Position numbers and translations under genes: made by a program. DNA of 32,000 nucleotides from Candidatus Heimdallarchaeota archaeon (GTDB lineage Archaea; Asgardarchaeota; Heimdallarchaeia; Heimdallarchaeales; Kariarchaeaceae): NCBI GenBank assembly GCA_030149205.1, contig JASBSB010000001.1, positions 420,001 to 452,000 on the forward strand. Direction: 5' to 3'. Shown in pieces: positions 3,875 to 26,423 of the stretch. Below the pieces are notes generated by a model. That model had not been told where the DNA came from. It saw nothing but the letters and a program-made list of their open reading frames with translations, and searched no databases. Position 1 is the first letter of the stretch; every line of letters starts with the position of its first letter.

Positions 3875-6800
3875 ATGCAACAACTAGCCGAGTCAGAGAT
3901 TTACCATTCAAAACACAAGGTTCGTGTAATCACAGCAACCTCATTATTCGACGGTCATGATGCCACCATTAACATCATTAGGCGTATTCTACAAGATTCA
4001 GGAGCTGAAGTTATTCATTTAGGGCATAACAGAAGTGTTTGGGATGTAGTTAAAGCTGCAATTCAGGAGGATGCACAAGGAATCTGTGTCTCAAGCTATC
4101 AAGGAGGTCACATGGAATATTTCAATTACATGAGAGAACTGTTGGACAAGCTAGGAGCAAGTCACATTAAGATTTTTGGAGGGGGTGGGGGAGTTATAAT
4201 TCCTGATGAAATCAAAAAACTGGAATCTTCAGGGATACAAAAGATATTTTCTCCAGATGATGGTAGGATACTAGGGCTTCAGGGTATGATAAATGTTATT
4301 TTAAAAGAGTGTGATTTTTCTACACCCTCAATAGATGTTCTCGACTCAAACAAAATTGAGGACACTTGGAAGAAGACTGCAAGTTTGATATCCTTAGCAG
4401 AAAGACAAAAATTTAACCCAACTTCGCAGAGTAGAGCCATCCCTGTAATTGGGATCACTGGAACAGGTGGAGCTGGAAAATCTTCTCTGACGGATGAGCT
4501 TGCCAGACGTGTCTCAATTGACTTTCCGAAAATTAAAATCGCAATTATATCAATTGACCCATCTAAGAGAAAGACAGGAGGAGCCCTGTTAGCAGATAGA
4601 ATTAGGATGAACAGTTTGACTCATTCTGACATGATTTATATGAGGTCTTTAGCGACAAGAAGAGCTAATTTTGCAACTAGTGAGGCTGCATTAAGTGCGA
4701 TTGACATCTGTAAGGAGATGAATTATGACCTTATTATTTTAGAAACATCTGGGATTGGACAGTCAGGGTCAGAAGTCGTGGATATTGCAGATATCTCAAT
4801 ATATGTAATGACAACTGATTATGGTGCATCAACTCAGCTTGAAAAAATTGATATGATTGATTTTGCTGATTTTATTGTTATAAATAAATTTGAGCGACAG
4901 GGATCACTTGATGCACTAAGAGATGTTAGAAAGCAATACAGAAGATCTAGAAAGATTTTTGACACTGAAAAATACCCAGATGAAACTCTTCCAGTTTTTG
5001 GGACAATGGCAAGCCAATTTAATGATGCAGGAGTTAATTCACTATATTTAGCTTTGTTGGGTCTAATCAATGATCGATTCGATAATTTAGAGTTTATTTC
5101 AAATTTGGATAAGGAACATCAGTTACCAACCGGCATCTCTACCCGTAATGTTATAGTCCCACCGGAACGAGTTAGATATCTCTCAGAAATTTCAGAGACG
5201 ATTCGGGGTTATAAAAATCAAGCGAAAGAACAAGCAGAACTAGCAAGAGAGTTATGGCATCTTATCTCCGTTAGAGATAGGTTGGTAAACACTAGTCAAC
5301 CTACGGAGCTTATTAACTTATTAAACAAAGATATTGACGAATTATTTACCAATTTAAACTCAGATGTGGCTGACATCATTGATAACTGGAATGAGGTAAA
5401 ATCCAGATATCAAAATCCAGAGTTTGTTTACAAAGTTAGAGGGAAAGATATTAAGGTGAAAACATCAACAGAGTCACTTTCACACCTACAAATCCCTAAA
5501 GTTGCCCTCCCAAGGTACAAAGATTGGGGAGAAATTGTATCCTGGACTTTATTAGAAAATGTTCCTGGGGAATTTCCCTTTACTGCAGGAGTTTATCCAT
5601 TCAAGCGAACTCAAGAAGACCCAACAAGGATGTTTGCTGGTGAAGGCCCACCAGAGAGAACAAACAAGAGATTTCATTATTTATCTGATGGTCAACCTGC
5701 TGCAAGATTATCTACAGCATTTGACTCAGTAACATTGTATGGTGAGGATCCAAATGAGAGGCCAGACATTTTTGGGAAAATTGGAGAGAGTGGAGTTTCT
5801 ATCTGTACAATCGAAGATATGGAAAGACTGTATGCTGGATTTAATTTGTGTTCTCCTAAAACATCAGTCAGTATGACAATAAATGGCCCTGCTCCGATAA
5901 TGCTTGCATTTTTCTTCATGACTGCCGTCCGTCAGCAGGTCAGAAAATGGGTGGTTGACCAAGGGCTGTTAAAGCCAATGGAGGCATTTGTGGTCTCAGG
6001 TGATGGGAGGGTTGGTTACGATGTTCATCTGGGAACTAGTCTAACTGTTGAAAAAAATCTCACAAAGAGTTGGGAGGAAATCAAGAAACTGGTACCCAAC
6101 GATATCTATGAGGAAATTAAATCTCAAACATTTACCTCTGTTAGAGGCACAGTACAGGCAGATATTCTTAAAGAAGATCAAGCACAAAACACCTGTATAT
6201 TTTCCACCTTCTTTTCACTGAAGATGATGGGGGATATTCAAGAATATTTTGTGAATCATAATGTGAAGAATTACTATTCTGTATCAATCTCTGGGTATCA
6301 TATTGCTGAGGCTGGAGCAAACCCTATAACCCAGACAGCATTCACACTTGCTAACGGATTCACATATCTAGAGTATTATAGAGCTAGAGGGTTGGATGTA
6401 GATAAATTTGCACACAACTTCTCATTCTTTTTCTCAAATGGTCTTGACCCAGAGTACAGTGTCATAGGTAGAGTCGCTAGAAGAATCTGGGCTGTGGCTT
6501 TAAAACACAAGTATAATGCAGGGAAGAGAAGCCAAATGTTGAAATACCACATACAAACAAGTGGAAGAAGTTTACATGCACAAGAGGTTGATTTTAATGA
6601 TATTCGAACGACCTTACAGGCACTTTTGGCAATTTATGACAATTGTAATTCACTTCACACAAATGCATATGATGAGGCTGTCACAACGCCTACAGAGGAA
6701 TCTGTGAGAAGGGCAATGGCTATTCAGTTAATTATTAACAGGGAGTTTGGGTTAACCACAAATGAAAATCCCAACCAAGGTTCATATATTATTGAAGAAC

Positions 6801-7246
6801 TAACAGAATTGGTAGAAGAAGCCATTCTATCTGAGTTTGACAGGCTAACTGAAAGAGGGGGGGTGTTAGGAGCAATGGAAACCCAGTATCAACGTGGTAA
6901 AATACAAGAAGAGTCATTATATTATGAGACGTTAAAAGCAACTGGAGACCTTCCGATTATGGGAGTAAACACTTTTTTGAACCCTCATCGTAAGAGCAAT
7001 ACACTTGAGGTCCCCTCACTAATTCGAGCATCACACGAAGAAAAAACACTTCAAATCAATAGATTAAGAGAATTTCAGTCAAAACATAAGGATCTAGCTG
7101 TTGAGTCCCTTAAGCAATTACAAAAAGTATCAATAGAGGGTAAAAATATTTTTGAAGAGCTACTTCAAACAGTTGAGAGCTGTAGTCTTGGTCAGATAAG
7201 CAAAGCATTGTATGATGTAGGTGGAGAATATAGAAGAAATCTATAG
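3875..7246 (+). CDS. icmF: Fused isobutyryl-CoA mutase / MeaI GTPase chaperone (AdoCbl-dependent)
   Basis: N-terminal B12-binding domain (FDGHD, SSYQGGH, FGGGGG), then a MeaB-type G domain ([21 protein letters not shown]), then a mutase barrel ([44 protein letters not shown]). Phe and Gln sit at the positions of MCM Tyr89 and Arg207. Confidence 0.96.
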
Positions 7247-10224: not shown

Positions 10225-10563
10225 TTGATACATATGTGGCATACACTTGATGGATATTGGTACATGATGAATTATGCGTGGATGTGGATTTCAATGTATA
10301 TCGTTGTAATCCTTACATTAGCGTTTATTAGTTCAAGAAGAGATGAGAACACGTTTTTATGGGTCTTACTTTTTATATTCTTCCCTATGATGTCTATTTT
10401 CGTTTATTTGATATATATAGTCATTCAGCAACCAGAAGAATCTAAAATAACAACTACTCCGGAGACAAACCAAACAAACAATACTTCAAAGTACTGTTCT
10501 GAATGTGGGGCCATGAATCCAAGAATTGCGAAATTCTGTACGGAATGTGGAACTACCTTCTAG
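10225..10563 (+). CDS. Small membrane protein with two TM helices and a C-terminal zinc ribbon
   Basis: Two hydrophobic segments, a Thr/Asn-rich linker, then CSECG...FCTECG. ATG 10234 is an alternative start. Confidence 0.8.
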   Translation: MIHMWHTLDGYWYMMNYAWMWISMYIVVILTLAFISSRRDENTFLWVLLFIFFPMMSIFVYLIYIVIQQPEESKITTTPETNQTNNTSKYCSECGAMNPRIAKFCTECGTTF

Positions 10564-12437: not shown

Positions 12438-13166
12438 TTGAAATTAGTGAAGCAAAACAAACTTAGGAACATAAATACATTATTTTTTGACTTAGATGGT
12501 ACACTTTTAGATCTTTCAGATGAGAATTTTGAGAAAGTATATGCCTATGAAGCTGCAATGATTTTTAAAGATATTATTGACCCAAAAATTTTCGTTAAGT
12601 TACTTATTGAAAGCACCGTTGAAATGATGAAAAGTCGAGGAGAGAAGTTACTGATTGATGTGTTCTATGAATTTTTTTGTCCAAAGGTTGGATTAAAAGA
12701 AGATGAGGTTCAGAATCGATTCTTGAGGTTTTACGAAACCTCATTTGATAAATTAAAGTTGGTGTCAAAAAGAATTAACGGAGTTCCTGACTTAATAAGG
12801 AAACTCAATGACAGAGGTTATAAGCTGGTTTTAGCAACACAACCTTTCTTTTATGAGTTAGCAACCATTAAAAGAATAAGATGGGCAGGATTGGAACCTG
12901 ATCAGTTCTTATATTTTACCCATATTGAAAATAGTAGTGTGGCAAAACCGAACCCCCTGTATTTTGAACAACTTGCAAACATCACCAAATCAAAACCTGA
13001 AGAAATTTTAATGATAGGGAATGACTACCTATATGACTTATCAGCAAAGAAATTAGGCATTTCTACATGGATGACCCCTCAAAATCAATCAAATCTTGAG
13101 TACAAAGATAAAATGAGCCCAGATTTTGAACTTCCACTATTAGAACTCTTAGATTTCCTACCTTAG
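12438..13166 (+). CDS. HAD-superfamily hydrolase (phosphatase)
   Basis: Motif I FDLDGTL, motif II LATQP, motif III AKP, motif IV IGND...D. Confidence 0.92.
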   Translation: MKLVKQNKLRNINTLFFDLDGTLLDLSDENFEKVYAYEAAMIFKDIIDPKIFVKLLIESTVEMMKSRGEKLLIDVFYEFFCPKVGLKEDEVQNRFLRFYETSFDKLKLVSKRINGVPDLIRKLNDRGYKLVLATQPFFYELATIKRIRWAGLEPDQFLYFTHIENSSVAKPNPLYFEQLANITKSKPEEILMIGNDYLYDLSAKKLGISTWMTPQNQSNLEYKDKMSPDFELPLLELLDFLP

Positions 13167-13738
13167 ATGATTTCACTCTCAAACTCTTCTTCTAATTCTG
13201 AACTGGTAGATAGAAGCTGACCTAGATTTTCAAATATTTCAATTAAGTTATCATCATTTTTTATTGAATATTCATAGAGAAAAATTTCATTCGACCAAGT
13301 CTTTGAGATTTTCTCCATCAATGACTTCACATCTGATATACTAAAGTCAGCTTCATTAGTTAAATCAATCTTGTTAACAAGAAAAACCAAAATAGGAGAC
13401 CCACAATGCTTTTCGACCTGTGGGAGCCAGTCATTAACTGCGTTTAATGATACAAAATTGGTTAAATCGATCAAAAAAATTACAACAGAAGTTCCTCTTA
13501 AATACATTTCAATCAAAGATTTGTAAGAAAGTTGTGATCCAAGTTCCCAAATGCTAAACAGAAAACTATTACCTGCGTATTGCATTGGAAAACTTTCGAT
13601 TTGCACTGGAGTGGTGGGGATATATTTCTCAGAAAATTTCTGATAGATGAGTTTGTTAATTAAACTAGTTTTCCCGGTTCTGGAACTACCTAATAACAAA
13701 ATCTTGAATATATATTGAGTGTCCACCATTCGAACCAT
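13163..13738 (-). CDS. Ras-superfamily (Rab-like) small GTPase with a degenerate G3 motif
   Basis: FKILLLGSSRTGKTS (G1), YIPT (G2), WELGSQ (G3, normally WDxAGQ), NKID (G4), YSIK (G5). No C-terminal CAAX. Its stop overlaps the HAD gene's stop. Confidence 0.9.
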   Translation of the reverse strand: MVRMVDTQYIFKILLLGSSRTGKTSLINKLIYQKFSEKYIPTTPVQIESFPMQYAGNSFLFSIWELGSQLSYKSLIEMYLRGTSVVIFLIDLTNFVSLNAVNDWLPQVEKHCGSPILVFLVNKIDLTNEADFSISDVKSLMEKISKTWSNEIFLYEYSIKNDDNLIEIFENLGQLLSTSSELEEEFESEII

Positions 13739-13802
13739 TCATTATATTCTTTAAAATAATTTATATTATAATACACAAAATAATTTAGTTCTTATGAAAT
13801 TA

Positions 13803-15512
13803 TCATTTTGCATAGTTTAAGATTGATTTTTCAACTTTAAACTCTTCTGGAAGTTTTTCTAAATTCAAAATCCTCATGACTGAGGAATCAAGCGCTGTAT
13901 GGTTACGAGCACTTAAAAGCTGGCCTGCCCTCATCATCAATGTCCTTCTTTTTACGGTTTCGTCTCCTTTTTTAGGATAATCCATTACCCTGGTTCGGGT
14001 TGATCCTATCACTGCAACTAACCTATTTTCATCTCCTGAGAAGGTAAGAATAACCTTTTCATTATCATTGATTGAAAATACAATTTCTTCGGGTTTAAAT
14101 TGAACTTCACTTGAACTAAGCTCACTTAACACAGATTCTAATTGGACATCAAGACCATCTAAAATTGAGATCAGTTTTGTAGGGTTAATATTGTCAGTAA
14201 TTTCATAAATAGAAGTTTGTCCACTGGTATAATCTGATTCCAAGGCACCATCTAACACATATTCACTTTCTCTAATCACGTCAAAGGTTTCAAATAAAGG
14301 AATATCAGATACTGCCTCAACTGATAATGAGTCAGCAAGAGAATTAGGCAACATATTTCGTTTTAATTTAGAAACCTGTACTTTTGTAGTAGCTCTGGTG
14401 TTTCCAGTTGGAGTGCTGTCCTCTTTTTTGAACATCCCTAATAACTTTGCGATGAACCCCTTTTTCTGAGGAGCTGGGGGCTTAATGCTGGATTGTGTTT
14501 CATATGTATTCTCCTTTTGCTCAACCTCAATAGTAAACTCCTTTAACCAACCCTCAGCATCACTATCAACGAGTTCTAGAATACTTGTCATTTGGGTCGC
14601 ATTTACCCCATCAACCTTAGTTGTTAAAATCATTGAGGGTTTAGAGCTAACATAGGGATTCCTAACTAGAATTAAATGAGAGTTATTTTCATCAAGTAAG
14701 TTCCCAGATAAGAATTGAAGTTTATAGTTTGAATCAAGTTTGGAAAGGTGAGAGTGAAGCGATTCAAGAGAACTATTACTAGGCTGTTTGTCTATATTTG
14801 AGAAACTGGAAAAAACACTTTTCCATTTTCCAGACAGGATCGCTTTTGTATCAAGATAGTTAGGGATTATAGCGTCCTTTTTCTCTTCAATCTGGTTTTC
14901 CTTGGTATATGAAATAAATTTTCTCCGACTAATTTCAACCAGATCTGCTACACTATTCACCTTGACAGATTTAGGAGAATCTTCATATTCCAAACGTAAA
15001 TCCGTCCTTCTAATTGCAGCAAACAGAACCGCTAATTCCCAAAAACCGAAGTCTGAAGATTCTAAAAATTCTCTGGTATAATACAAAAACGGAGCTATAA
15101 AATTATAATGAATTCTACCATATCTGATATCCATCGGGAGTCCACGACTTGCTAAAAAAAGATCATTTTTTCGAATTTTTGAACCAAGATAATACCCTAG
15201 AGCCATTGTTTCCATGACTTTCTTGGAACTCTCATTTCTGGTCTCTAGGCCTATCTTGAAGAGTTCGAGCACACAGCTTCTTCTTTCCTCATCACTTGCA
15301 CCAATTAATTCTGAAGCAGTAACTATGAAATCTGCAAGAAATAATGCCCTTTGGGCACTTTCATCACTTTTTGATAACCCATGTTTTTCAGCAAATTCAA
15401 TTAGCTCAGGAGACATGGATTCATACCTTTTCAGCCTAGTATCTAAGTCGAATTCTGAATTAACATTCTCTCTAAGTTCACCTATCATTTGATAATTAGG
15501 AATCAAATCCAT
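13803..15512 (-). CDS. 569-aa protein with an internal amphipathic membrane-targeting-like helix and a C-terminal roadblock/LC7-like domain
   Basis: The ORF is clear. KKGFIAKLLGMFKK lies at about 14424-14465, and a roadblock-like helix/strand pattern at about 13998-14300. Domain calls are by pattern only. Confidence 0.7.
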   Translation of the reverse strand: MDLIPNYQMIGELRENVNSEFDLDTRLKRYESMSPELIEFAEKHGLSKSDESAQRALFLADFIVTASELIGASDEERRSCVLELFKIGLETRNESSKKVMETMALGYYLGSKIRKNDLFLASRGLPMDIRYGRIHYNFIAPFLYYTREFLESSDFGFWELAVLFAAIRRTDLRLEYEDSPKSVKVNSVADLVEISRRKFISYTKENQIEEKKDAIIPNYLDTKAILSGKWKSVFSSFSNIDKQPSNSSLESLHSHLSKLDSNYKLQFLSGNLLDENNSHLILVRNPYVSSKPSMILTTKVDGVNATQMTSILELVDSDAEGWLKEFTIEVEQKENTYETQSSIKPPAPQKKGFIAKLLGMFKKEDSTPTGNTRATTKVQVSKLKRNMLPNSLADSLSVEAVSDIPLFETFDVIRESEYVLDGALESDYTSGQTSIYEITDNINPTKLISILDGLDVQLESVLSELSSSEVQFKPEEIVFSINDNEKVILTFSGDENRLVAVIGSTRTRVMDYPKKGDETVKRRTLMMRAGQLLSARNHTALDSSVMRILNLEKLPEEFKVEKSILNYAK

Positions 15513-18788: not shown

Positions 18789-20930
18789 TTGGTACAATCA
18801 TTGTCAATTCAAATTGAAAATATTAGTAGCAGAATTCAACAATTTCTAATAATAGTTTTAGCGGGAGTCTATACCACAATACAGTCCCTTGTTCCTTCAA
18901 CTATTAGAATACTTCCGGGTTTGGATATAACAAATCAAGGATTTGGACTATTTGTTCTTGCAACAGGGGCAATGATATTTGGAAAGGGAGTTGGAGCAGG
19001 TTCCGCAGGTTTAGGTGTGATTTTTGACCAGTTTAAAGTTGTTCTTGATGGGTCCTCTGTCCCTAACTTGAATCTTGGGCTATTGGTCGGAACTGTAAGT
19101 TTAGGACTAGGTGCATGGTTAACAGGATTCCTTGAAAACGGTCGTACTGGAGATTTTGTTTCTTCAAGTTTTAAAGGTGTCATGTCAAAGGCGGAAATTC
19201 TTAAAGTGGGGAGAAAAACCTTGGTTTCAATAGTTGGCTTAGGAATCACCTCAAACTTTACGTATGCGTTTGGAGCTCAATTAATAGAAGGTGGAAACAT
19301 CTTTGGAGCTATTACCTATTTTTTGACAACTTTCTTAGAAGACAGCTTTGTGCTCATATTAACAGTTCCAATATCACTTTTAGCATTTGATATTACAAAT
19401 GTTTACAATGAAAAAAAATCAAATTTTATAGAGCAATTAAATCAAAAGGTGGATTATAAAATCGAGGTTTCACAATCTGCTGAAATTTTGAAGGTTTCGT
19501 TACCTGAGACTTCCTTAGTTCAAGGGAAGTGGACACCAGTTGTGGTTGAGTTTATGAATCCATCAACTGAAAAAAAGCAATATCAGGTTGAAGCAGTATT
19601 TACCACAAAATTTTATCCTCACACTGACAAAACACCTCAACTCAAACCTGGTGAGGGATGGAAACAGACATTTTTCGTTCTCCCCAGTAAGCAGAGTTCA
19701 GTTTACGGGAGAATTAGGATAACCAGTAACAACGACATACAGTACAAATCATCAAACCCTGATGAGTCAATTGTTGAAATTACCGCTAATTCAAGAGACC
19801 CCAACACCATAATTGGTTCACTAATAGGCTTAAGTGGTGTAAATTTTGGGATTCTTGGAATTTCTGTTATTTGGGATCAGGTTTTATCATTTTTTTCTAA
19901 CCCTGAATTGCTCTTATCTCAATTTCAATCTACGGTTTCAACATTGTCTGAAGTAATTTTTGCTGAAATCTTATTATTCATTTCATTGTTATTATGGACA
20001 GTGTTTCGTACAAAGAAGGAGAAAACCCAATTTTCACAAAAGATTAGTTTTTCGAGTGATTTAGATGACCAGCTAATTCAATCGCTTAAGGCAAATTCAA
20101 TAAGGATAATGCTCAAAAAATATGGAAATGGGCTAACAAGCGTTTTTCGGGTGCTTATTGGAATAAGCAGTTTAGGGTTAATCATATTTTTGGGAAACCA
20201 GGGGTATCAAGTAATTACAAATCCCACGTACACTGTTACTAACCAAGAGTTGCTTTTTGGTTTAATTTTAGGGATGATAATTTCTTGGGTGCTCGGATTC
20301 AGAGGTTTACAGATAATTACTGAGATGAATCTCAAAAATGCAGCATATAATAATAACCCTGATGACTTTGTTCAAGAGTTCAAACCTGTTGGGGATATAA
20401 ATGAAAATGAACCCAATAATTTTCTATTTAAGGTGATTAATACTTCTGATTTACCAGGAATAAGAATCAAATTTGAATCAACAGATTCAATTGCTCCACC
20501 TTTAATAGAACTACACATAGAACCTGGTGAGATAGCTCAATTTAAGGTCGTAGTCACTCCTAATACAGGAAATCATAAAATTTTAGCATTAGCTTATCCG
20601 CTGTTTGATAAAAAGAAAAAATATGTGAATTTTGATGAATCTGAACCTTTTGCTAAACAGGAGCTTAGTTTTGCAGTAAATTCAAAAGGAGTCCTGGGGA
20701 TGTCAAAAAAACAACAATCCCAACTTAAAGGTATTACTGCTTTGTTGACTGGTTTTACTGGATTACTGGCAGTTATCAATCAGATAGTCCCAGGAAGCAA
20801 TAATTTTACGATAATTCTGGATAACTTACCTGCGCTACTGAGTTTGCAGATCCCGATTTTGGGAGCATATTTCAGCTTGAATTCTACGCTAAAAAATTGG
20901 CTAATTAAATCAGGAGAAAATGACTTATGA
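18789..20930 (+). CDS. Polytopic membrane protein: ECF S-component-like N-terminus plus two Ig-like beta domains, each followed by TM helices
   Basis: About 5-6 TM helices in the first 200 aa, with FGKGVGAGSAGLG resembling the FGPxxG motif of S components. Two soluble segments share an N.S...L/I.PGE...F pattern. ATGA overlap with the next gene. Confidence 0.7.
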   Translation: MVQSLSIQIENISSRIQQFLIIVLAGVYTTIQSLVPSTIRILPGLDITNQGFGLFVLATGAMIFGKGVGAGSAGLGVIFDQFKVVLDGSSVPNLNLGLLVGTVSLGLGAWLTGFLENGRTGDFVSSSFKGVMSKAEILKVGRKTLVSIVGLGITSNFTYAFGAQLIEGGNIFGAITYFLTTFLEDSFVLILTVPISLLAFDITNVYNEKKSNFIEQLNQKVDYKIEVSQSAEILKVSLPETSLVQGKWTPVVVEFMNPSTEKKQYQVEAVFTTKFYPHTDKTPQLKPGEGWKQTFFVLPSKQSSVYGRIRITSNNDIQYKSSNPDESIVEITANSRDPNTIIGSLIGLSGVNFGILGISVIWDQVLSFFSNPELLLSQFQSTVSTLSEVIFAEILLFISLLLWTVFRTKKEKTQFSQKISFSSDLDDQLIQSLKANSIRIMLKKYGNGLTSVFRVLIGISSLGLIIFLGNQGYQVITNPTYTVTNQELLFGLILGMIISWVLGFRGLQIITEMNLKNAAYNNNPDDFVQEFKPVGDINENEPNNFLFKVINTSDLPGIRIKFESTDSIAPPLIELHIEPGEIAQFKVVVTPNTGNHKILALAYPLFDKKKKYVNFDESEPFAKQELSFAVNSKGVLGMSKKQQSQLKGITALLTGFTGLLAVINQIVPGSNNFTIILDNLPALLSLQIPILGAYFSLNSTLKNWLIKSGENDL

Positions 20931-22726
20931 GTAAAAAACTTCTTTCTGTACTAACCTTAACCTTTATTCTGTTGGGAGCAGGGTTTACATATTATTCATT
21001 TACTACCCCAACAATTGACTTAAGTCCAGAATTTGCGGCTCAGGCAATTCAATTAACTTCTGGAGCGAACTTACTCTTTGGAGGAAATGCTTTGAAACTA
21101 CTAAACAAATACGAGGGAATTGGAAAAATAACCAAGGATTATCTTACTGATGTATTTAAATTTAATATGAAAGGGAAAAAGAACACACTTTATTACCAAA
21201 ACTTAAACAATTTGATTCCAGGATATTCCAATCCCCCTAACTTTGCATTTGACCCCACATACAATGAAAGCATATCTACTCAAGGGTTAGGATTCAACAT
21301 TGCACCTTCATCTTTTATTAAAAGTTATCAAAACAAATTCCTCTCAACACCGATTGAAAGTACAGATCCTTTATCAAAGATCCCAGATAGTATGAAAGAA
21401 AATATAAATAAAACATCAAGACTGTTTGATGTTTGGAAACAAACTTTAACAGGAAATACCTCCTATTTTAATTTTGTATCAACTTCTGGCTACTCATTAA
21501 ATTACCCGTTTTTCTCTCTCCCTAAGATTTATGATGGAAGAAATGAATCTTTCTACAACTCTGCGATAATTGGACAAAAAGATCTTGTAATAGTGATTGA
21601 TAGATCTGGATCATTGAACAAAGATACTTTTACTGCACTTAAGAACTCAATTAAGTCAATCATAAACACCCTATCTCCATCAGACAGATTCAATATTTTA
21701 ACATTTTCAGATCATGTTTCTGTTTTTTCGAATAGTTTGAGCAGTGCAACTATTAGTACAAAAATTTTAGCAGAGAAATATATAGATAGAATTAGATTAG
21801 GTGGGCTTTCAGACATTGGGATGGGATTTACTTCGGGATTAAAAATTCTGACAGATTTTGGATATCAGAGGAATAAGCGATTGTTTCTCACCTTTTCAGA
21901 TGGAAAACCTACTTCAGGTGTAATTCAAAATGATTCATTAATCCAAGAGATTGTTAGTGCAAATGGTGGAGCTAAAGCAACCCCAATATTTTACGGGATT
22001 ACCAAAAATCCTAATAATGAAATGTTTACCTCCTTGGCAAATCAGATGGGAGGGTTCTATATTAACACAAATACCACGAGTAAACTACTTAACTTGGTTC
22101 CCAACTATAATAAGCTAATAAACAATATTACTTCTGAAAACAAAATTTGGAGTACTCCCTTTGTAAGCTCTATTAACCACAATATTTTCTCTAACTTAAG
22201 TTTTGCAATAAATTATGCTGGTCAACACTTTGGAGTTTTTAACATCCAAGTTAAGCTATCTGAATTTTTGGAGAGTTTACAGAAGACAAAGTTGTATAAT
22301 TCCCAGACTAACTTTATAATCAACACTGGAGGATACACCTTTGCTCATCCTATATTTGAAAGTCTCCAATTAAAAGACAGAATTACAAACAACCTTCAAC
22401 AACCAATCGAAAATTTTACGCTAACCTCGGCCGATTTCAAAGGGATGTTGACGGATTTAGCCAAAAATAACTATAAGACCAAAATAGTTCAGAGTAATAA
22501 TTTAACTAAGTTTGTGATTTCCTTATCACCGCTTGGACAAACAGGATTGGTTTCAGGAACTATCATCCCATTAACTGAAATAATCAACCAAAACATCTTA
22601 GGTTCACTTTCTGGTCACAGACCAAATTTTGAAGGAATGTATCTTTCCTTTGCTATTGCTGTAACCGTTGGAATAATTATCATTTTGTTAAGTAGCAGAA
22701 TTCTGAAGGAGGAAACAAAACAATGA
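20927..22726 (+). CDS. dCache domain with an inserted VWA (MIDAS) domain; alpha2delta/CACHD1-like membrane-anchored ectoprotein
   Basis: N-terminal TM/signal, then NYP...YDGRNESFY (Cache), [12 protein letters not shown]...GLSD...FSDG (complete MIDAS), WSTPF...FGVFNIQV...[13 protein letters not shown] (Cache continued), a C-terminal TM and a roughly 10-residue tail. Many NxS/T sequons. Confidence 0.85.
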   Translation: [599 protein letters not shown]

Positions 22727-25374
22727 ACAATAATGTAGGGAACAATGACCCAGAAGAGAACAATAAAACTGAACCCAAAGGTAAAAAAATTGAAGCCTCA
22801 TCAGAAGGGGAAAAGATTGATGAAACTACAGAGGAGCCTTCAAAACAAAATGCTGGAATCGAAACTAATACAAACGCTTCTTCAGAACCTCTTGACAGTT
22901 CAGACAGTAATACAGAAACGATAAAAGACTCACCTATAATTAGCGACACTAACCAACCGACTGATTCGAAGAAGGATGTAAGCAAGTTAGATCAAGAACA
23001 TGATAATGAAGAAAAGAATCAAACTGAACTTAAGGGAGGGGATGAGAGTACTCCATCATCACAGAATGATAAAAACTCCACTGGAGGGTCGTTCTTACAA
23101 AGCCTTGGTTCAGTAGGCAATATTTTACCTTTTCAGGTTAGAAAGTCAAAGCCTGAAGATTTAAGTCCGCAGGATCAAATAGAGGCTGCGATTAACGAAA
23201 CAAAACAAAATGTACCTAAATTCTACTCAAAGACAAATTTTTCAGAAAAAACCAGGTTTCAGAAATTCAGAATAGCTACATATAAGTCTCTCTCTCTCTC
23301 GTTAATACCATTATTGATTATCTTGATCGGATTATCTTTTAATTTGCATGCGATTCAAGGAACAGTCTTTGTCGACAACACACGTCAATACTCGACAAAC
23401 TCTATTCAATATTCTAACAAATTAGCAACGCAACTAAATAATGAATACTCAAGCTTCATAAGTTCTATTGAGAGTGAATTTCGGAACCTAAAATTTAACA
23501 TTGCGAGCGATCCAACAACCTATGATATCCAAAGTTTTTCGGTTAATGAAACCGGTGCCACTCCGAACCCTCAGTTCAGCACGAAATATAACAAGATTGT
23601 TGATTATAGTGTATCTGCTTGGCAATTGTTAGCAAAACACAATAGAACGAAATCTGTAAATGATACAGTACAACTAACTGCCCAATTTGACCCATACTTT
23701 ATGACCACATACAATAAAGTTAAGGAAATTCTCTGGATAAGATTAATTCTCGATAACGGGGTTGTACGGACTTACCCTCATTTACCAGATAATTCCTCAA
23801 ATACTAACTTCCAAGCACTTCAGTGGTTCAATAAAACTAAATCAGCATTCAGTTTCGATACATTTGTAACAGGCCTAGAAGTTGATAATATTACATCAAA
23901 ATTGATTTATTCAATAACAAGTCCATATTTTAAGAATGGAATAAAATTGGGTGTTTTGCAAGCTTCAATTGATGTAGTAGAACTAAAACAACAATTTAAT
24001 TTGTTAAAGGGTAAAGGGATTACCCCCTTTTTGATGACAAAGGCTGGCCAAGGAGTCTATCATCCGAAACTTTCACTTAAGCAATTTGGTTGGAATAATA
24101 ATGAGTTAAACCAGAGTATCTTAAAAATTGACCCAGTTATCAATGAGATAAATCGAACTAAAAATATCATTGGGTTAACAAACCAATTAAATGGGAGTGT
24201 TTCAGTAAATACTGTAGGTGTAACATATTGGATATTTCCGATTACTAACACTGGTCAAGTTTTAGGACTTTACTTAGAACTTTCAACCACTCCAGTAAAG
24301 TCTCAATTCGATAGTTTTCAATTACTTGCACTCCCAATTGGAGTAGCTGTTATCCTTCTAGTTTCTATTGTTGGATTACAATTACAATCTGGATTAATTA
24401 AAATAGATAATCTTGAAAAATCGCTTAAAAGGTTTAGAAGGGCTACTAAAATTGAAGGGATATCAAATAGATTAAGGGATACCCTTACTCAAATGAGTAC
24501 AGAAAATATAATTGACAAAACTGGATCAAGGGCAGAGAAGTTAATCAAAGAGAAAGGAAAAGATGCAAGAGAAAATGTGGAAGGTGAAATTTCAAGAGGT
24601 TTGGAAAAGGTGTCTTCAAACATTGATAAAGGTAAATCTATGATCCTTGAAGAGGAAGATACCAATCTTGTTGAGGTAATTGAAAAGGATAAAATTTTGA
24701 CAAAAATATTAGAATCGCTGGAAGAAAATCCGTACTTATTCCTTCAAAACAGGATAAAAATGAAGAATATCAATATTGAGGATATAAAAAATGAAAACTA
24801 TTCCTCTTTAAAAAGCCTAGTTACAGGTGCAGAGAAGCTTTTAATAGCATTAATTGTAGGGCGAAGAATTGATATAGCCAAAATTTCTGATTCCTGTGAG
24901 ATGAATGGAGAACAGCTAAGCGGGTTTTTCACCAGCCTCCCTCTAAATCTTGGAATCACGTTGTCAGAAGATCAAAAATCGATCATGGTAGAACAAAAAT
25001 TGTTATTGGAAAACATTGAATCATTTACTTTGTACTTCAATAAATTCCTCAAAAACCCTAAAAAATACCTTAAACTGTCAACTAGTAATAATGTTGAAAA
25101 AATAGATAAAGTTAAATCTCAAATAGAAAAGTTCTATTCCACAATCCAAGAAAGAAACTCCATTTCATTAGATGAACTTTCAGAGATATTTCAACTCCAT
25201 AAGAAACAAATAATTGAAATTTTTAGTCAGTTGAGTTCCGACAAAAAATTTGGAATTAATTTAGAAGAAAAAACTTTGAGTATTGATGAAGATAAATTCA
25301 AATCTAACCTCTTGGACTTTGTTAAAAAATTCACTTTGATAGTAGTCACAAGATACTCTTTTATCTCCGCTTAA
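22723..25374 (+). CDS. Two-TM dCache receptor with an acidic disordered N-terminus and a cytoplasmic coiled coil plus two winged-helix-like repeats
   Basis: TM1 (LSLIPLLIILIGLSF), then LDNGVVRTYP...QWF...SITSPY...GVLQASID...FLMTKAGQGVYHP (dCache), then TM2 (LLALPIGVAVILLVSIVGL). No HAMP/MCP/HisKA motifs were recognised in the tail. Confidence 0.8.
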   Translation: MNNNVGNNDPEENNKTEPKGKKIEASSEGEKIDETTEEPSKQNAGIETNTNASSEPLDSSDSNTETIKDSPIISDTNQPTDSKKDVSKLDQEHDNEEKNQTELKGGDESTPSSQNDKNSTGGSFLQSLGSVGNILPFQVRKSKPEDLSPQDQIEAAINETKQNVPKFYSKTNFSEKTRFQKFRIATYKSLSLSLIPLLIILIGLSFNLHAIQGTVFVDNTRQYSTNSIQYSNKLATQLNNEYSSFISSIESEFRNLKFNIASDPTTYDIQSFSVNETGATPNPQFSTKYNKIVDYSVSAWQLLAKHNRTKSVNDTVQLTAQFDPYFMTTYNKVKEILWIRLILDNGVVRTYPHLPDNSSNTNFQALQWFNKTKSAFSFDTFVTGLEVDNITSKLIYSITSPYFKNGIKLGVLQASIDVVELKQQFNLLKGKGITPFLMTKAGQGVYHPKLSLKQFGWNNNELNQSILKIDPVINEINRTKNIIGLTNQLNGSVSVNTVGVTYWIFPITNTGQVLGLYLELSTTPVKSQFDSFQLLALPIGVAVILLVSIVGLQLQSGLIKIDNLEKSLKRFRRATKIEGISNRLRDTLTQMSTENIIDKTGSRAEKLIKEKGKDARENVEGEISRGLEKVSSNIDKGKSMILEEEDTNLVEVIEKDKILTKILESLEENPYLFLQNRIKMKNINIEDIKNENYSSLKSLVTGAEKLLIALIVGRRIDIAKISDSCEMNGEQLSGFFTSLPLNLGITLSEDQKSIMVEQKLLLENIESFTLYFNKFLKNPKKYLKLSTSNNVEKIDKVKSQIEKFYSTIQERNSISLDELSEIFQLHKKQIIEIFSQLSSDKKFGINLEEKTLSIDEDKFKSNLLDFVKKFTLIVVTRYSFISA
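23227..23240 (+). repeat. (TC)7 dinucleotide tract inside the dCache receptor gene, at the start of TM1
   Basis: Seen directly (TCTCTCTCTCTCTC, encoding SLSLS). Confidence 0.8.
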
Positions 25375-25408
25375 TACTATTTAACATTGAATATCAATCA
25401 CATATAAG

Positions 25409-26354
25409 GTGAAAGAGAATTGGTCAAGACTAAAACCTCAAATTATTCCTTCAAGTAAGACTATATCAGAAATTTTGAGTTAGAATGAATTTTTTCTGAT
25501 TAGTTACGAAATAACTCAAAGTGGTTTAAGTAGCACCAACATCATAGCTAAAGCTAAAAAAGGCGATAGTTCATATAAATTGGTTGTTCGAATTGAACGA
25601 GCTGAACTAACTTGTCAAATTATTTTTAGTGTATATAGGCTTTTAAAAGAAATTTGAGTTTCTTCCGAGGATATTTTAGGCAAACTGTAATCTCATTAGT
25701 TCTTTTATGAACCCATATTCTGTTTGGGATTTCTTTCCTGAAATTGAACTCCACAGAATAAATTACATACAAAATTTATAACTTCTCAAGAAAATTGGCT
25801 CAGTATTGGGAGAAATTCATAGCATAGAGTTCGGCAAAAGCGGATTTTTACAAATCAGAATCTAAAAATTATGAATTTTTCATTGAGTGAAAACAATATC
25901 CCCCATATTGCTGAACAATTTATCAACAATATCCCAATACTTAAATCAGATTTTAAAATTAAAGTAAAGGATTGGCTAATTTAGCAGAAAGGTCTTTTAA
26001 GCTCTGTTAATCCTATCAACTCACTAGTGGGTGATGATTTCAATGAACATAATATTCTGATGTCAGATGATGAGATAGAAAATATTTGGGTCATTGATTT
26101 GGAATTTTGTTTTTCAGGAAGTATTTATTGGGATATTGGAAATTTTTTTAGAATTTTTAAAAATGTGAATTCTGAACAACTACTTTACTTCGAATCAGGT
26201 TATCGAGAATCTGGAAAGATTACCAAATGAATGGATCATGATTGCAAAAATAAATGACCTAATAACATTGCTCAGTCTGTTGGAATATTCTTATGTCGAT
26301 CAACAAAGAGTTGATGATGTTATGGTAATTCTTGGAAGGTACATATCATATTAG
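25409..26354 (+). pseudogene. Decayed aminoglycoside phosphotransferase/choline kinase (APH) family gene
   Basis: Joined across frames it reads MKENWSRLKP..., GLSSTN...YKLVVRI, PYSVWDF, KIGSVLGEIHSIEF.KSGF, LVGDDFNEHNIL...IDLEF..SG..YWDIGNFFR, LPNEW..IAK..DLITLLSLL. In-frame stops fall at 25481, 25655, 25688, 25697, 25779 and 25982, with at least 3 frame changes. The track's 67-aa ORF is one fragment. Confidence 0.85.
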
Positions 26355-26423
26355 AGCCTGAATTAGGTGATCACTCTTAATCAATAAGTAATGGTTTTTA
26401 TTTACAGTTATTAATTAAATTTA

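Follow-up and report, generated by a model that had tools for sequence, protein, structure and literature searches.

[quoted passage not shown] Alpha2delta is a Cys-rich protein of about 1,100 aa that is cleaved and held in the membrane by a lipid or a TM; within its one chain, a dCache(VWA) is nested in a second dCache (PMC8915833). The insertion of the VWA domain was dated to LECA and would have followed gene transfer from bacteria (Gumerov et al. 2022, PMC8915833). Single dCache_1(VWA) forms of about 540–640 aa, consisting of one dCache(VWA) ectodomain and then a C-terminal TM, are found in protists and invertebrates, and streptophytes have dCache(VWA) Ser/Thr kinases (Gumerov et al. 2022, PMC8915833). 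On the prokaryotic side, the bacterial dCache_1 chemoreceptors PctA, PctB and PctC (PDB 5ltx, 5ltv) have the order TM, dCache, TM and pair by their stalk helices; the bacterial dCache_1 sensors are homodimers with a cytoplasmic MCP, kinase or cyclase module.

The window analysed here is a stretch of 32,000 nt from a Candidatus Heimdallarchaeota archaeon. A preliminary description of it had pointed to three co-oriented membrane-protein genes joined by ATGA overlaps, and this is confirmed by the ORF coordinates, from which both junctions are overlaps of 4 nt (Table 1). All three genes have stop-free orthologues in other genera, at 20–50% identity, and judged by this conservation they are real genes. 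Most related loci likewise have 4-nt overlaps or direct abutments. For gene 1 and gene 2 an overlap of 4 nt or an abutment is also seen in loci L013, L014, L015, L017, L018 and L049, and for gene 2 and gene 3 a 4-nt overlap in L015, L016, L017, L018, L021, L048 and the bacterial locus L042. According to hydropathy, gene 1 is polytopic, gene 2 has one N-terminal and one C-terminal TM, and gene 3 has two TMs, one on either side of a 325-aa ectodomain. Kinase, cyclase or chemotaxis genes were not found in the window, in line with the preliminary description, and no gene in it matched an ion-channel Pfam family.

Table 1. Features of the three-gene locus (positions within the window; residues of the respective protein).
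Feature	Position	Strand	Description or basis
Gene 1	18789-20930	+	ORF, 713 aa, TTG start; polytopic membrane protein
Gene 1 beta-sandwich 1, residues 222-336, probably cytoplasmic	19452..19796	+	AF2 strands, fold matches, K/R-rich flanks
Gene 1 beta-sandwich 2, residues 528-630, probably cytoplasmic	20370..20678	+	AF2 strands, fold matches, K/R counts
Gene 1 stop/gene 2 start, ATGA overlap, 4 nt	20927-20930	+	ORF coordinates
Gene 2	20927-22726	+	ORF, 599 aa, ATG start; TM, dCache_1 with inserted VWA, TM
Gene 2 segment ending in the degenerate motif YDGRNESFY	21008..21577	+	AF2 model, motif table
Gene 2 VWA domain, residues 218-398	21578..22120	+	Pfam VWA 4e-14
Gene 2 MIDAS DRSGS, residues 225-229	21599-21613	+	plus S295, D325
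Gene 2 remaining distal lobe and membrane-proximal dCache lobe, residues 399-565	22121..22621	+	dCache_1 match at 403-518, AF2 model
Gene 2 stop/gene 3 start, ATGA overlap, 4 nt	22723-22726	+	ORF coordinates
Gene 3	22723-25374	+	ORF, 883 aa, ATG start
Gene 3 ectodomain, residues 209-533, dCache_1 without VWA	23347..24321	+	family profile, Pfam, hhalign, tree
Gene 3 cytoplasmic region, residues 553-883	24379..25371	+	charged helical segment, then two repeats of ~80 aa
Gene 3 repeat 1, residues 693-772	24799-25038	+	hhalign
Gene 3 repeat 2, residues 791-870	25093-25332	+	hhalign

Gene 2 had been described as a dCache(VWA) protein. The profile search, Foldseek and the motif table substantiate this and show it to be of the true alpha2delta/CACHD1 type, with an intact MIDAS. 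A dCache_1 domain was matched in 9 of 10 members of its family. Searched against the PDB, the family profile gave CACHD1 as top sequence-profile match (7.5e-40), closely followed by alpha2delta-1 (~2e-39), with VWA-only proteins at ~1e-32 and Cache-only proteins at ~6e-15. The alignment is unbroken over positions 152–551 for alpha2delta-1 and 156–477 for CACHD1 and in each case crosses both dCache/VWA junctions. In the AF2 model of gene 2 (pLDDT 90.7, pTM 0.82) a predicted stalk helix at residues 34–78 is joined by a distal and a proximal lobe, and the VWA would sit where this 45-residue helix ends, on the membrane-distal lobe. When the model was compared with the PDB by Foldseek, all of the top 14 matches were alpha2delta-1 (4e-28, ~570 columns) or CACHD1 (1e-25), the next match being at 1e-13.

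The VWA lies between YDGRNESFY (residues 202–210) and TPFV (410–413), the two halves of the YxxxxRxWY...Y...D motif, and the same split of this motif has been described in alpha2delta (Gumerov et al., PMC8915833). The insertion thus interrupts the amino-acid-binding motif at the position used by the eukaryotic alpha2delta and CACHD1, which places gene 2 as a prokaryotic member in the alpha2delta/CACHD1 dCache(VWA) lineage. Its MIDAS (DxSxS, T, D) consists of DRSGS at 225–229 and D325, with S295 where the Thr would be expected. DxSGS is invariant, and an alignment of 70 sequences shows no variation at D225 and S227. With alpha2delta-1 (CACNA2D1; PDB 8fd7, 7mix, 9vlg), its best structural match, gene 2 thus shares the interruption of the distal dCache_1 lobe by a VWA in the same position and the intact MIDAS. 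However, it is a single dCache(VWA) of 599 aa, has zero cysteines and a TM at both ends, and holds no second dCache_1 in the same chain that would nest the first; the second dCache is encoded by a separate paralogous gene, gene 3. CACHD1 (PDB 8s7c, 9eq6) is likewise a membrane protein with a dCache(VWA) core, from which gene 2 differs by the intact MIDAS and by having one dCache. Among the eukaryotic forms, those most similar to gene 2 are the protist surface proteins with a single dCache(VWA), for which there are also metagenomic examples of the protist/invertebrate type (P0038 to P0152). These single forms carry 18–24 cysteines and a signal peptide, whereas the archaeal ones have neither, and we know of no paralogous partner gene for the eukaryotic proteins.

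How the archaeal and the eukaryotic insertions are related was addressed with trees of the dCache, for which the ectodomains were aligned by MAFFT after excision of the VWA, of the VWA, and of both concatenated. In the dCache-only and concatenated trees the archaeal gene 2 sequences are monophyletic and group with the VWA-less gene 3 (SH-aLRT 93), with the eukaryotic dCache1 outside; the eukaryotic dCache(VWA) forms are a separate, fully supported clade. A sister relationship between the eukaryotes and the Hodarchaeota-like clade of gene 2 was not recovered. This topology would suit a convergent origin, in which a prokaryotic dCache acquired its VWA by a separate insertion, without any specific link to the eukaryotic proteins, and so would the metagenomic fusion P0021, which has lost its VWA, the domain being cleanly absent, and yet falls within the gene 2 clade. 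Against this stand the identical split of the motif and the HMM alignment to alpha2delta-1 running unbroken through both junctions. Moreover, in the VWA tree the archaeal and eukaryotic VWAs inserted in a dCache cluster together, separately from the VWA-only proteins (SH-aLRT 86), and an AU test did not reject a clade of gene 2 and eukaryotic dCache1 (p 0.20). We consider convergence very improbable.

Gene 3 starts with an acidic low-complexity N-tail, followed by a TM, a plain dCache_1, a second TM, a cytoplasmic coiled coil and two repeats. The earlier assignment of its ectodomain as a plain dCache is borne out by the family profile, which matched bacterial MCP dCache structures with 4e-14 and CACHD1 with 7e-16, and by Pfam, with dCache_1 matched in 7 of 10 family members and VWA_N in 3 of 10. 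The best single-domain matches are bacterial dCache_1 sensors (4e-14 to 6e-13). In hhalign gene 3 and gene 2 match each other with 2e-52, by which the dCache of gene 3 is a paralogue of that of gene 2; the TM, dCache_1, TM topology of prokaryotic receptors is found in both. The preliminary description had further likened the gene 3 Cache to the second Cache of alpha2delta. This could not be upheld: the eukaryotic second dCaches, compared by profile-profile scores only since they are too divergent for placement in the tree, score no better with gene 3 than with gene 2 or with other archaeal dCaches, one of the refuting outcomes that the description itself had listed, and without a specific likeness in these scores we rejected gene 3 as an orthologue.

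The gene 2-gene 3 pair was found in 11 out of 301 Asgard genomes, all of them Heimdallarchaeia of Kariarchaeota- and Hodarchaeota-like lineages, and in one bacterium. The two genes are adjacent in at least 14 loci (the 11 Heimdallarchaeia genomes, the metagenomic L047 and L048, and the bacterium), mostly with 4-nt overlaps at the junction. The Hodarchaeota and the bacterial loci both retain gene 2, gene 3 and the MIDAS. Natural fusions of the two genes, a search for which had been proposed, do exist among metagenomic proteins: besides P0021 there are P0009 and P0155, both without the two middle TMs. All natural fusions are tandem and not nested. Therefore a simple fusion of genes 2 and 3 would not give the eukaryotic layout, as had been supposed, since it yields a tandem arrangement and the one of alpha2delta is nested (PMC8915833).

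Prediction of the complex of gene 2 and gene 3, made with shallow alignments (10 rows), gave an ipSAE of 0.75 against 0.40 for the best control, a score to which resemblance to solved dCache dimers and to alpha2delta may have contributed. The pass mark applied here is reached by 58 of 80 solved complexes and by 2 of 110 mismatched pairs. At least 96% of the contacts agree across three runs, with a partner pLDDT of 80 or more. The predicted interface is made up of the stalk helices and all four TMs, and contains zero VWA residues. Together, synteny, the natural fusions and the passing complex prediction indicate that gene 3 probably pairs with gene 2. This predicted dimer resembles the bacterial dCache_1 sensors in topology and in the pairing of the stalk helices but, unlike these homodimers, would consist of two paralogues, with a VWA on one protomer and an output of no known type.

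Concerning this output, the two repeats in the cytoplasmic region of gene 3 match each other in hhalign with 98.1% probability (E 7e-14) and are kept across genera; the whole region is missing from the Hodarchaeota and bacterial orthologues. It matched no Pfam family, and a Protein Atlas look-up of the gene 3 tail gave no usable match. For a winged-helix fold, as proposed for the C-terminal repeats, there is a weak hint of an ArsR-type HTH (E 0.11), and Pfam gave no match. Neither gene 2 nor gene 3 contains a HAMP, MCPsignal, HisKA/HATPase, GGDEF or similar transmitter in searches of Pfam and NCBIfam with E up to 5. The bacterial locus L042 offers an analogy, as here gene 3 is followed, with a 4-nt overlap, by a single-pass receptor Ser/Thr kinase. 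This translational coupling is reminiscent of the streptophyte dCache(VWA) kinases; in the plant proteins, however, the kinase is fused in one chain, and the window has none. The coupled kinase suggests by analogy that the pair signals to a membrane partner.

The pocket for amino acids and gabapentin differs from that of alpha2delta, its motif carrying the changes R to E, W to F, Y to F and D to Q in the window gene 2. With a degenerate motif in gene 2 as well as in gene 3 of the window, small-molecule sensing appears doubtful for this organism. One may ask if the pair serves mainly adhesion or anchoring, its VWA-MIDAS binding an S-layer, matrix or partner-cell protein without any signalling, and gene 1 and the gene 3 tail being anchors or scaffolds. 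The VWA-MIDAS is a classic metal-dependent adhesion module, integrin I domains and the anthrax toxin receptor are among the profile and fold matches of gene 2, and the degenerate pocket, the lack of an enzymatic output domain in the searches above and the Hodarchaeota gene 3, which is without any cytoplasmic domain, would all fit. However, in the Hodarchaeota orthologues L019 to L021 the pocket motif is intact, and complete in both protomers, in the bacterial operon a receptor Ser/Thr kinase is coupled to the pair, and the gene 3 repeats are conserved across genera. A mainly adhesive function without signalling thus seems rather unlikely to us.

Gene 1 is predicted to have about 12 TM helices and two beta-sandwich domains, and its family is restricted to Heimdallarchaeia. 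It had no match in Pfam or NCBIfam and no usable one in the Protein Atlas look-up, and fold searches of AFDB, PDB and Atlas returned only its own family, half-size homologues and beta-sandwiches (Ig-like; CARDB, MSP, transglutaminase-C and PmoB-like with TM 0.26 or below). As the pLDDT of the model is 59.9, which is a low confidence, a fold could have been missed. Within these limits the idea of a transporter or channel, as in the preliminary description, or of an ECF S-component received no support from Pfam, NCBIfam or the three fold libraries.

Gene 1 adjoins gene 2 in 9 loci across two families, in 2 of these in divergent orientation, and it is next to the gene 2-gene 3 pair in Kariarchaeota-like relatives. 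Seven Hodarchaeota-family genomes were searched without finding a homologue, and in the bacterial L042 gene 1 is not beside the pair. Conversely, gene 1 paralogues occur elsewhere without gene 2 or gene 3 as neighbours, and the 94%-complete genome G008 has a close gene 1 homologue and no full-length gene 2 was found in it. Two kinds of ORF of similar length were considered and discarded: an ORF of 723 aa that lies divergently upstream of the Hodarchaeota gene 2, which had no match to the gene 1 HMM and contains an Eco57I methylase domain, and ORFs of about 710–726 aa upstream of gene 1 in genomes of the same genus, which code for Exo_endo_phos plus Big_7 proteins and are not gene 1 paralogues. 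Gene 1 is thus linked to the pair by adjacency only.

These data bear on the original proposal of a single alpha2delta-plus-channel-like complex of the three products, with gene 1 as the transporter or channel and one of its acidic residues completing the MIDAS of gene 2. Of this, the binding of gene 2 to gene 3 is retained as a prediction, while gene 1 falls outside the conserved core. For the full complex speak the order gene 1-gene 2-gene 3 with coupled junctions, which is conserved in 7 genomes of two families and in L049, the intact MIDAS, and residue E167 of gene 1, which is invariant and located in a predicted outside loop. On the other hand, apart from the missing transporter or channel family or fold, all outside loops of gene 1, as predicted from K/R counts (positive-inside rule) only, are 24 aa or shorter, and the VWA is expected on the distal lobe atop the stalk, which speaks against docking of the MIDAS onto gene 1. 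The pair and its MIDAS are also kept where gene 1 was not found or is not adjacent, and relatives of gene 1 exist without gene 2 or gene 3. We therefore judge the three-gene channel-like complex to be quite unlikely.

The reading which we consider likely is that of a gene 2/gene 3 heterodimeric receptor with a free VWA-MIDAS, relay through gene 3, and gene 1 as an accessory. Genes 2 and 3 would form a heterodimeric surface receptor with four TMs and two paralogous dCache_1 ectodomains, which would pack by their long stalk and TM helices, much like bacterial dCache receptors. The gene 2 protomer would present, in its membrane-distal lobe, the VWA with its intact MIDAS; since this domain makes no contact with gene 3 in the predicted complex, it would remain available for binding an acidic residue on a third partner, its ligand. 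Gene 3 is the likely relay, as it is the only one of the pair to reach the cytoplasm in this archaeon, and would act through its coiled coil and the two ~80-aa repeats. Gene 1 would then likely act as an accessory partner or as a target, with contacts within the membrane or at its cytoplasmic face, rather than as a channel docked by the MIDAS.

The Kariarchaeota- and Hodarchaeota-like lineages of the Heimdallarchaeia are reported to be the closest archaeal relatives of eukaryotes in established phylogenomics (Eme et al. 2023). We tentatively hold it possible that the pair represents a pre-eukaryotic stage of alpha2delta and CACHD1, with the VWA inserted before LECA in the archaeal ancestors of eukaryotes and the two protomers joined later. 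If this is true, the scenario of Gumerov et al. 2022, in which bacterial transfer is combined with an invention at LECA, would need revising, and a lineage-specific three-component membrane system with a subunit of 12 TMs and two beta-sandwiches would be a new archaeal signalling or adhesion apparatus. The insertion of a VWA into a dCache, attributed to LECA, is now seen in prokaryotes, and among the 301 Asgard genomes sampled only in Heimdallarchaeia. Here the dCache(VWA) module exists as a two-gene paralogue pair with natural fused forms, and by this pair and its fusions a stepwise origin of the two-Cache eukaryotic proteins becomes testable. Cysteine-free prokaryotic proteins are thereby on offer for structural and ligand work on dCache(VWA), and the locus points to an undescribed partner family, that of gene 1, and to an output domain of no known type in gene 3.

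The ORFs and hydropathy profiles confirm the arrangement seen in the preliminary description, three co-oriented membrane-protein genes (genes 1, 2 and 3, see the table) with an ATGA overlap at both junctions. All three are stop-free and have conserved orthologues in other genera. Gene 1 is polytopic, gene 2 has one transmembrane (TM) helix at each end and gene 3 has two around a 325-aa ectodomain. The neighbours are unrelated: upstream lies a methyltransferase on the opposite strand and downstream, after 1 kb without long ORFs, a glycosyltransferase. As had been stated, no kinase, cyclase or chemotaxis gene occurs within the window. In same-genus genomes gene 1 is directly preceded, on its own strand, by a gene for a protein of ~710–726 aa with Exo_endo_phos and Big_7; this gene is absent from the corresponding position in the window. 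Among the other ORFs of the window, the 569-aa ORF beside the Ras/Roc/Arf-type GTPase belongs to no Pfam family.

Coordinates of the features discussed (window positions, unless preceded by an L-number for a related locus; P, homologous protein from the exhaustive profile search; G, compared genome)
Feature	Position	Strand	Remarks
Gene 1	18789-20930	+	713 aa, TTG start (ORF listing)
Gene 2	20927-22726	+	599 aa (ORF listing)
Gene 3	22723-25374	+	883 aa (ORF listing)
Region past gene 3	25375-26423		~1 kb, zero ORFs of at least 80 aa
IcmF-like fusion	3875-7246	+	1123 aa; B12-binding domain, MeaB GTPase, methylmalonyl-CoA-mutase domain
ORF with C-terminal zinc ribbon	10225-10563	+	112 aa; weak S_4TM (SMODS-associated effector) match
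Ras/Roc/Arf-type small GTPase and 569-aa ORF	13163-15512	-	GTPase (191 aa) directly downstream of the 569-aa ORF
Exo_endo_phos + Big_7 ORFs	L013:388-2568, L014:2442-4568, L015:2022-4178	as gene 1
Gene 3 of G001	L014:8555-11100		116-aa ORF before 730-aa ORF
ORF after gene 3, Hodarchaeota	L019:10262-11746		leucine-rich-repeat protein, Cys-rich N-terminus
P0009 fusion ORF	L022:1416-4397		gene 2 + gene 3 ectodomain
P0021 fusion ORF	L041:2619-5210		contig also has sigma-70 gene
Pair and kinase of bacterium G304	L042:4109-9326		631, 414 and 694 aa
Gene 1 paralogues	L034:8179-11415, L035:1438-3576, L036:7117-9318, L038:2945-4957, L039:6457-8682		670-1078 aa; no gene 2/gene 3 neighbours

The core of the reading holds: gene 2 is an alpha2delta-type dCache(VWA) protein, and gene 3, its partner, is a plain dCache paralogue. 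For gene 2, Pfam finds a VWA domain at residues 219–387 and then a partial dCache_1. Ten orthologues match VWA in all cases, dCache_1 in nine and the alpha2delta-specific VWA_N in four. Against the PDB sequence set the family profile reaches 7.5e-40 for CACHD1 and about 2e-39 for alpha2delta-1, with an unbroken alignment to the latter over profile positions 152–551 that spans both dCache/VWA junctions; scores fall to about 1e-32 for VWA-only proteins and to about 6e-15 for Cache-only chemoreceptors. The 14 best PDB matches of the AF2 model (pLDDT 90.7, pTM 0.82, from a 70-sequence alignment) are alpha2delta-1 (best 4e-28, about 570 columns) or CACHD1 (1e-25), and the first match beyond these two follows only at 1e-13. 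The VWA occupies residues 218–398 and separates the dCache amino-acid motif YxxxxRxWY...Y...D into its two halves, here YDGRNESFY and TPFV. Gene 2 shares this split with alpha2delta, where the VWA interrupts the same motif (Gumerov et al. 2022, PMC8915833). The motif is degenerate in gene 2 of the window and its family and complete in the Hodarchaeota orthologues. The metal-ion site (MIDAS) is intact (DRSGS, S295, D325), with D225 and S227 invariant across 70 sequences. Gene 2 is also the sole Pfam dCache_1 match in the whole window genome (E 1.4e-5, below cut-off), which suggests that this genome has no Cache proteins besides genes 2 and 3.

The ectodomain of gene 3 is a plain dCache_1, paralogous to the dCache of gene 2 (hhalign 2e-52, and by tree). 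Its family profile reaches about 4e-14 against the dCaches of bacterial chemoreceptors and, as the sum of three stretches, 7e-16 against CACHD1; seven of ten family members match dCache_1 and three VWA_N. In the family of the window, TM2 is followed by a cytoplasmic region without match to any known family, which consists of a charged helical stretch and two mutually homologous units of ~80 aa (hhalign 98.1%, E 7e-14). This tail is missing from the Hodarchaeota and bacterial orthologues, and a zinc-ribbon tail replaces it in one Asgard (Promethearchaeota) locus. The N-terminal tail of gene 3 is a separate ORF in G001, which may reflect a frameshift or a different start. In Hodarchaeota loci gene 3 is followed by a co-oriented ORF of ~490 aa (in the table for L019; ORFs of similar size lie 3' of gene 3 in L020 and L021).

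Genes 2 and 3 are adjacent in 11 Heimdallarchaeia genomes, two further metagenomic loci and one bacterium, mostly with 4-nt overlaps. The neighbourhood is conserved for this pair. Natural fusions, for which a search had been proposed, do exist. P0009 and P0155 (993 aa, two assemblies) join gene 2, VWA included, to gene 3 without both middle TM helices, giving a single tandem two-dCache ectodomain. In P0021 (863 aa) a gene 2-clade dCache without VWA is fused end to end with a gene 3-clade dCache, which suggests that the VWA of the gene 2 clade can be lost cleanly. Complex prediction with gene 2 residues 1–599 and gene 3 residues 185–560 gave an ipSAE of 0.75, against 0.40 for the best control. 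Of 80 solved complexes 58 reach this mark, as do 2 of 110 mismatched pairs. Since structures of dCache dimers and of alpha2delta have already been solved, likeness to them may account for part of this pass. Between runs, 96% or more of the contacts recur, with a partner pLDDT of 80 or higher. The predicted interface is built from both stalk helices together with the four TM helices and contains no VWA residues. The prediction supports binding of genes 2 and 3 without proving it.

Of the single complex proposed for all three products, this predicted gene 2–gene 3 interface is the part that finds support. Gene 1 had been taken for a transporter- or channel-like partner onto which gene 2 docks via its MIDAS; neither the identity nor the docking is supported. 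It has no Pfam or NCBIfam match. Its weak AF2 model (pLDDT 59.9) consistently contains some 12 TM helices along with a pair of beta-sandwiches (residues 222–336 and 528–630). Fold searches brought up no transporter or channel fold; beyond the family of gene 1 itself and half-size homologues, the matches were all sandwiches of Ig-like, CARDB, MSP or transglutaminase-C type. K/R counts in ten orthologues give a self-consistent N-in/C-in topology, which predicts both sandwiches to be cytoplasmic and outside loops of at most 24 aa. The gene 2 model places the VWA on the distal lobe, at the far end of a 45-residue stalk helix; therefore, judged from these models, MIDAS docking onto the short gene 1 loops is unlikely. 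Gene 1 orthologues lie next to gene 2 in nine loci, which belong to two families, and are divergent in two of the nine. A search of seven Hodarchaeota-family genomes recovered no gene 1 homologue, G008 has a close one without gene 2 or gene 3, and distant paralogues occur in unrelated contexts. Thus, gene 1 is at best a lineage-specific accessory.

The orthologue-bearing records are MAGs under the names Candidatus Heimdallarchaeota, Kariarchaeota and Hodarchaeota; the Kariarchaeota record G005 belongs to the same GTDB family as the window genome. The Ras-family GTPase of the window agrees with an Asgard origin. Full-length gene 2 is present in 11 of 301 Asgard genomes, with an additional fragment at the edge of a contig; all of these belong to three families of the window's class; the remaining Asgard matches are VWA-only proteins. 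An exhaustive search of 1.84 billion representatives yielded about 15 full-length clusters of the prokaryotic dCache(VWA) family, followed by eukaryotic two-dCache proteins (e.g. Pecten P0030, foraminifer P0080, coral P0150) and then by Cys-rich single-dCache(VWA) proteins from compact eukaryotic contigs. In Hodarchaeota and metagenomes, four proteins of ~870–940 aa (P0063, a TPR protein by its source's naming, P0028, P0051 and P0089) combine a plain dCache, related to those of genes 2 and 3, with a C-terminal VWA. In the bacterium G304 (GCA_029260735.1; 8.7 Mb, 24 sigma-70 matches, no TBP match) dCache(VWA) and plain dCache genes precede a single-pass receptor Ser/Thr kinase with extracellular PPC-like repeats, with 4-nt overlaps throughout. 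Since G304 is the only carrier among 301 genomes of its phylum and its gene 2 is 45–47% identical to the Hodarchaeota-like clade, the bacterial pair is best read as a horizontal acquisition.

According to Gumerov et al. (2022, PMC8915833) every dCache_1 protein of eukaryotes has the VWA insertion, and this insertion and the dCache nesting date to around the last eukaryotic common ancestor, after bacterial transfer; their passages on the insertion mention no prokaryotic example. Nor did full-text searches on Asgard or Heimdallarchaeia alpha2delta, CACHD1 or dCache, or on dCache-inserted VWA, turn up a described prokaryotic dCache(VWA). The VWA tree unites the dCache-inserted VWAs from archaea with those from eukaryotes and sets them apart from VWA-only proteins (SH-aLRT 86), with the eukaryotes as one subgroup (87) and the archaea outside it. 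The dCache-only and concatenated trees place the eukaryotic first dCaches in one fully supported clade and archaeal gene 2, with Hodarchaeota-like and Kariarchaeota-like sequences, in another, and join gene 2 with gene 3 (93); the AU test does not reject a clade of gene 2 and eukaryotes (p 0.20). Thus, neither the prokaryotic proteins nor those of the sampled eukaryotes nest within the other group. The comparisons do not support equating gene 3 with the second Cache of alpha2delta: the second dCache of the eukaryotic proteins scores 4.6e-22 with gene 3, against 5.8e-32 with gene 2 and 2.3e-30 with other archaeal dCaches, and is no nearer to gene 3 than to these, so that the term 'split alpha2delta' describes domain content rather than shown orthology. 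Neither does a fusion of genes 2 and 3 give the eukaryotic layout, as the natural P0009/P0155 fusion is tandem whereas the two dCaches of alpha2delta are nested (Gumerov et al. 2022, PMC8915833).

Most likely, genes 2 and 3 would form a heterodimeric four-TM receptor, whose free VWA-MIDAS would bind an acidic ligand. Gene 3 is likely the cytoplasmic relay; output would pass through its novel cytoplasmic repeats, which may possibly signal on to the cytoplasmic beta-sandwiches of gene 1.
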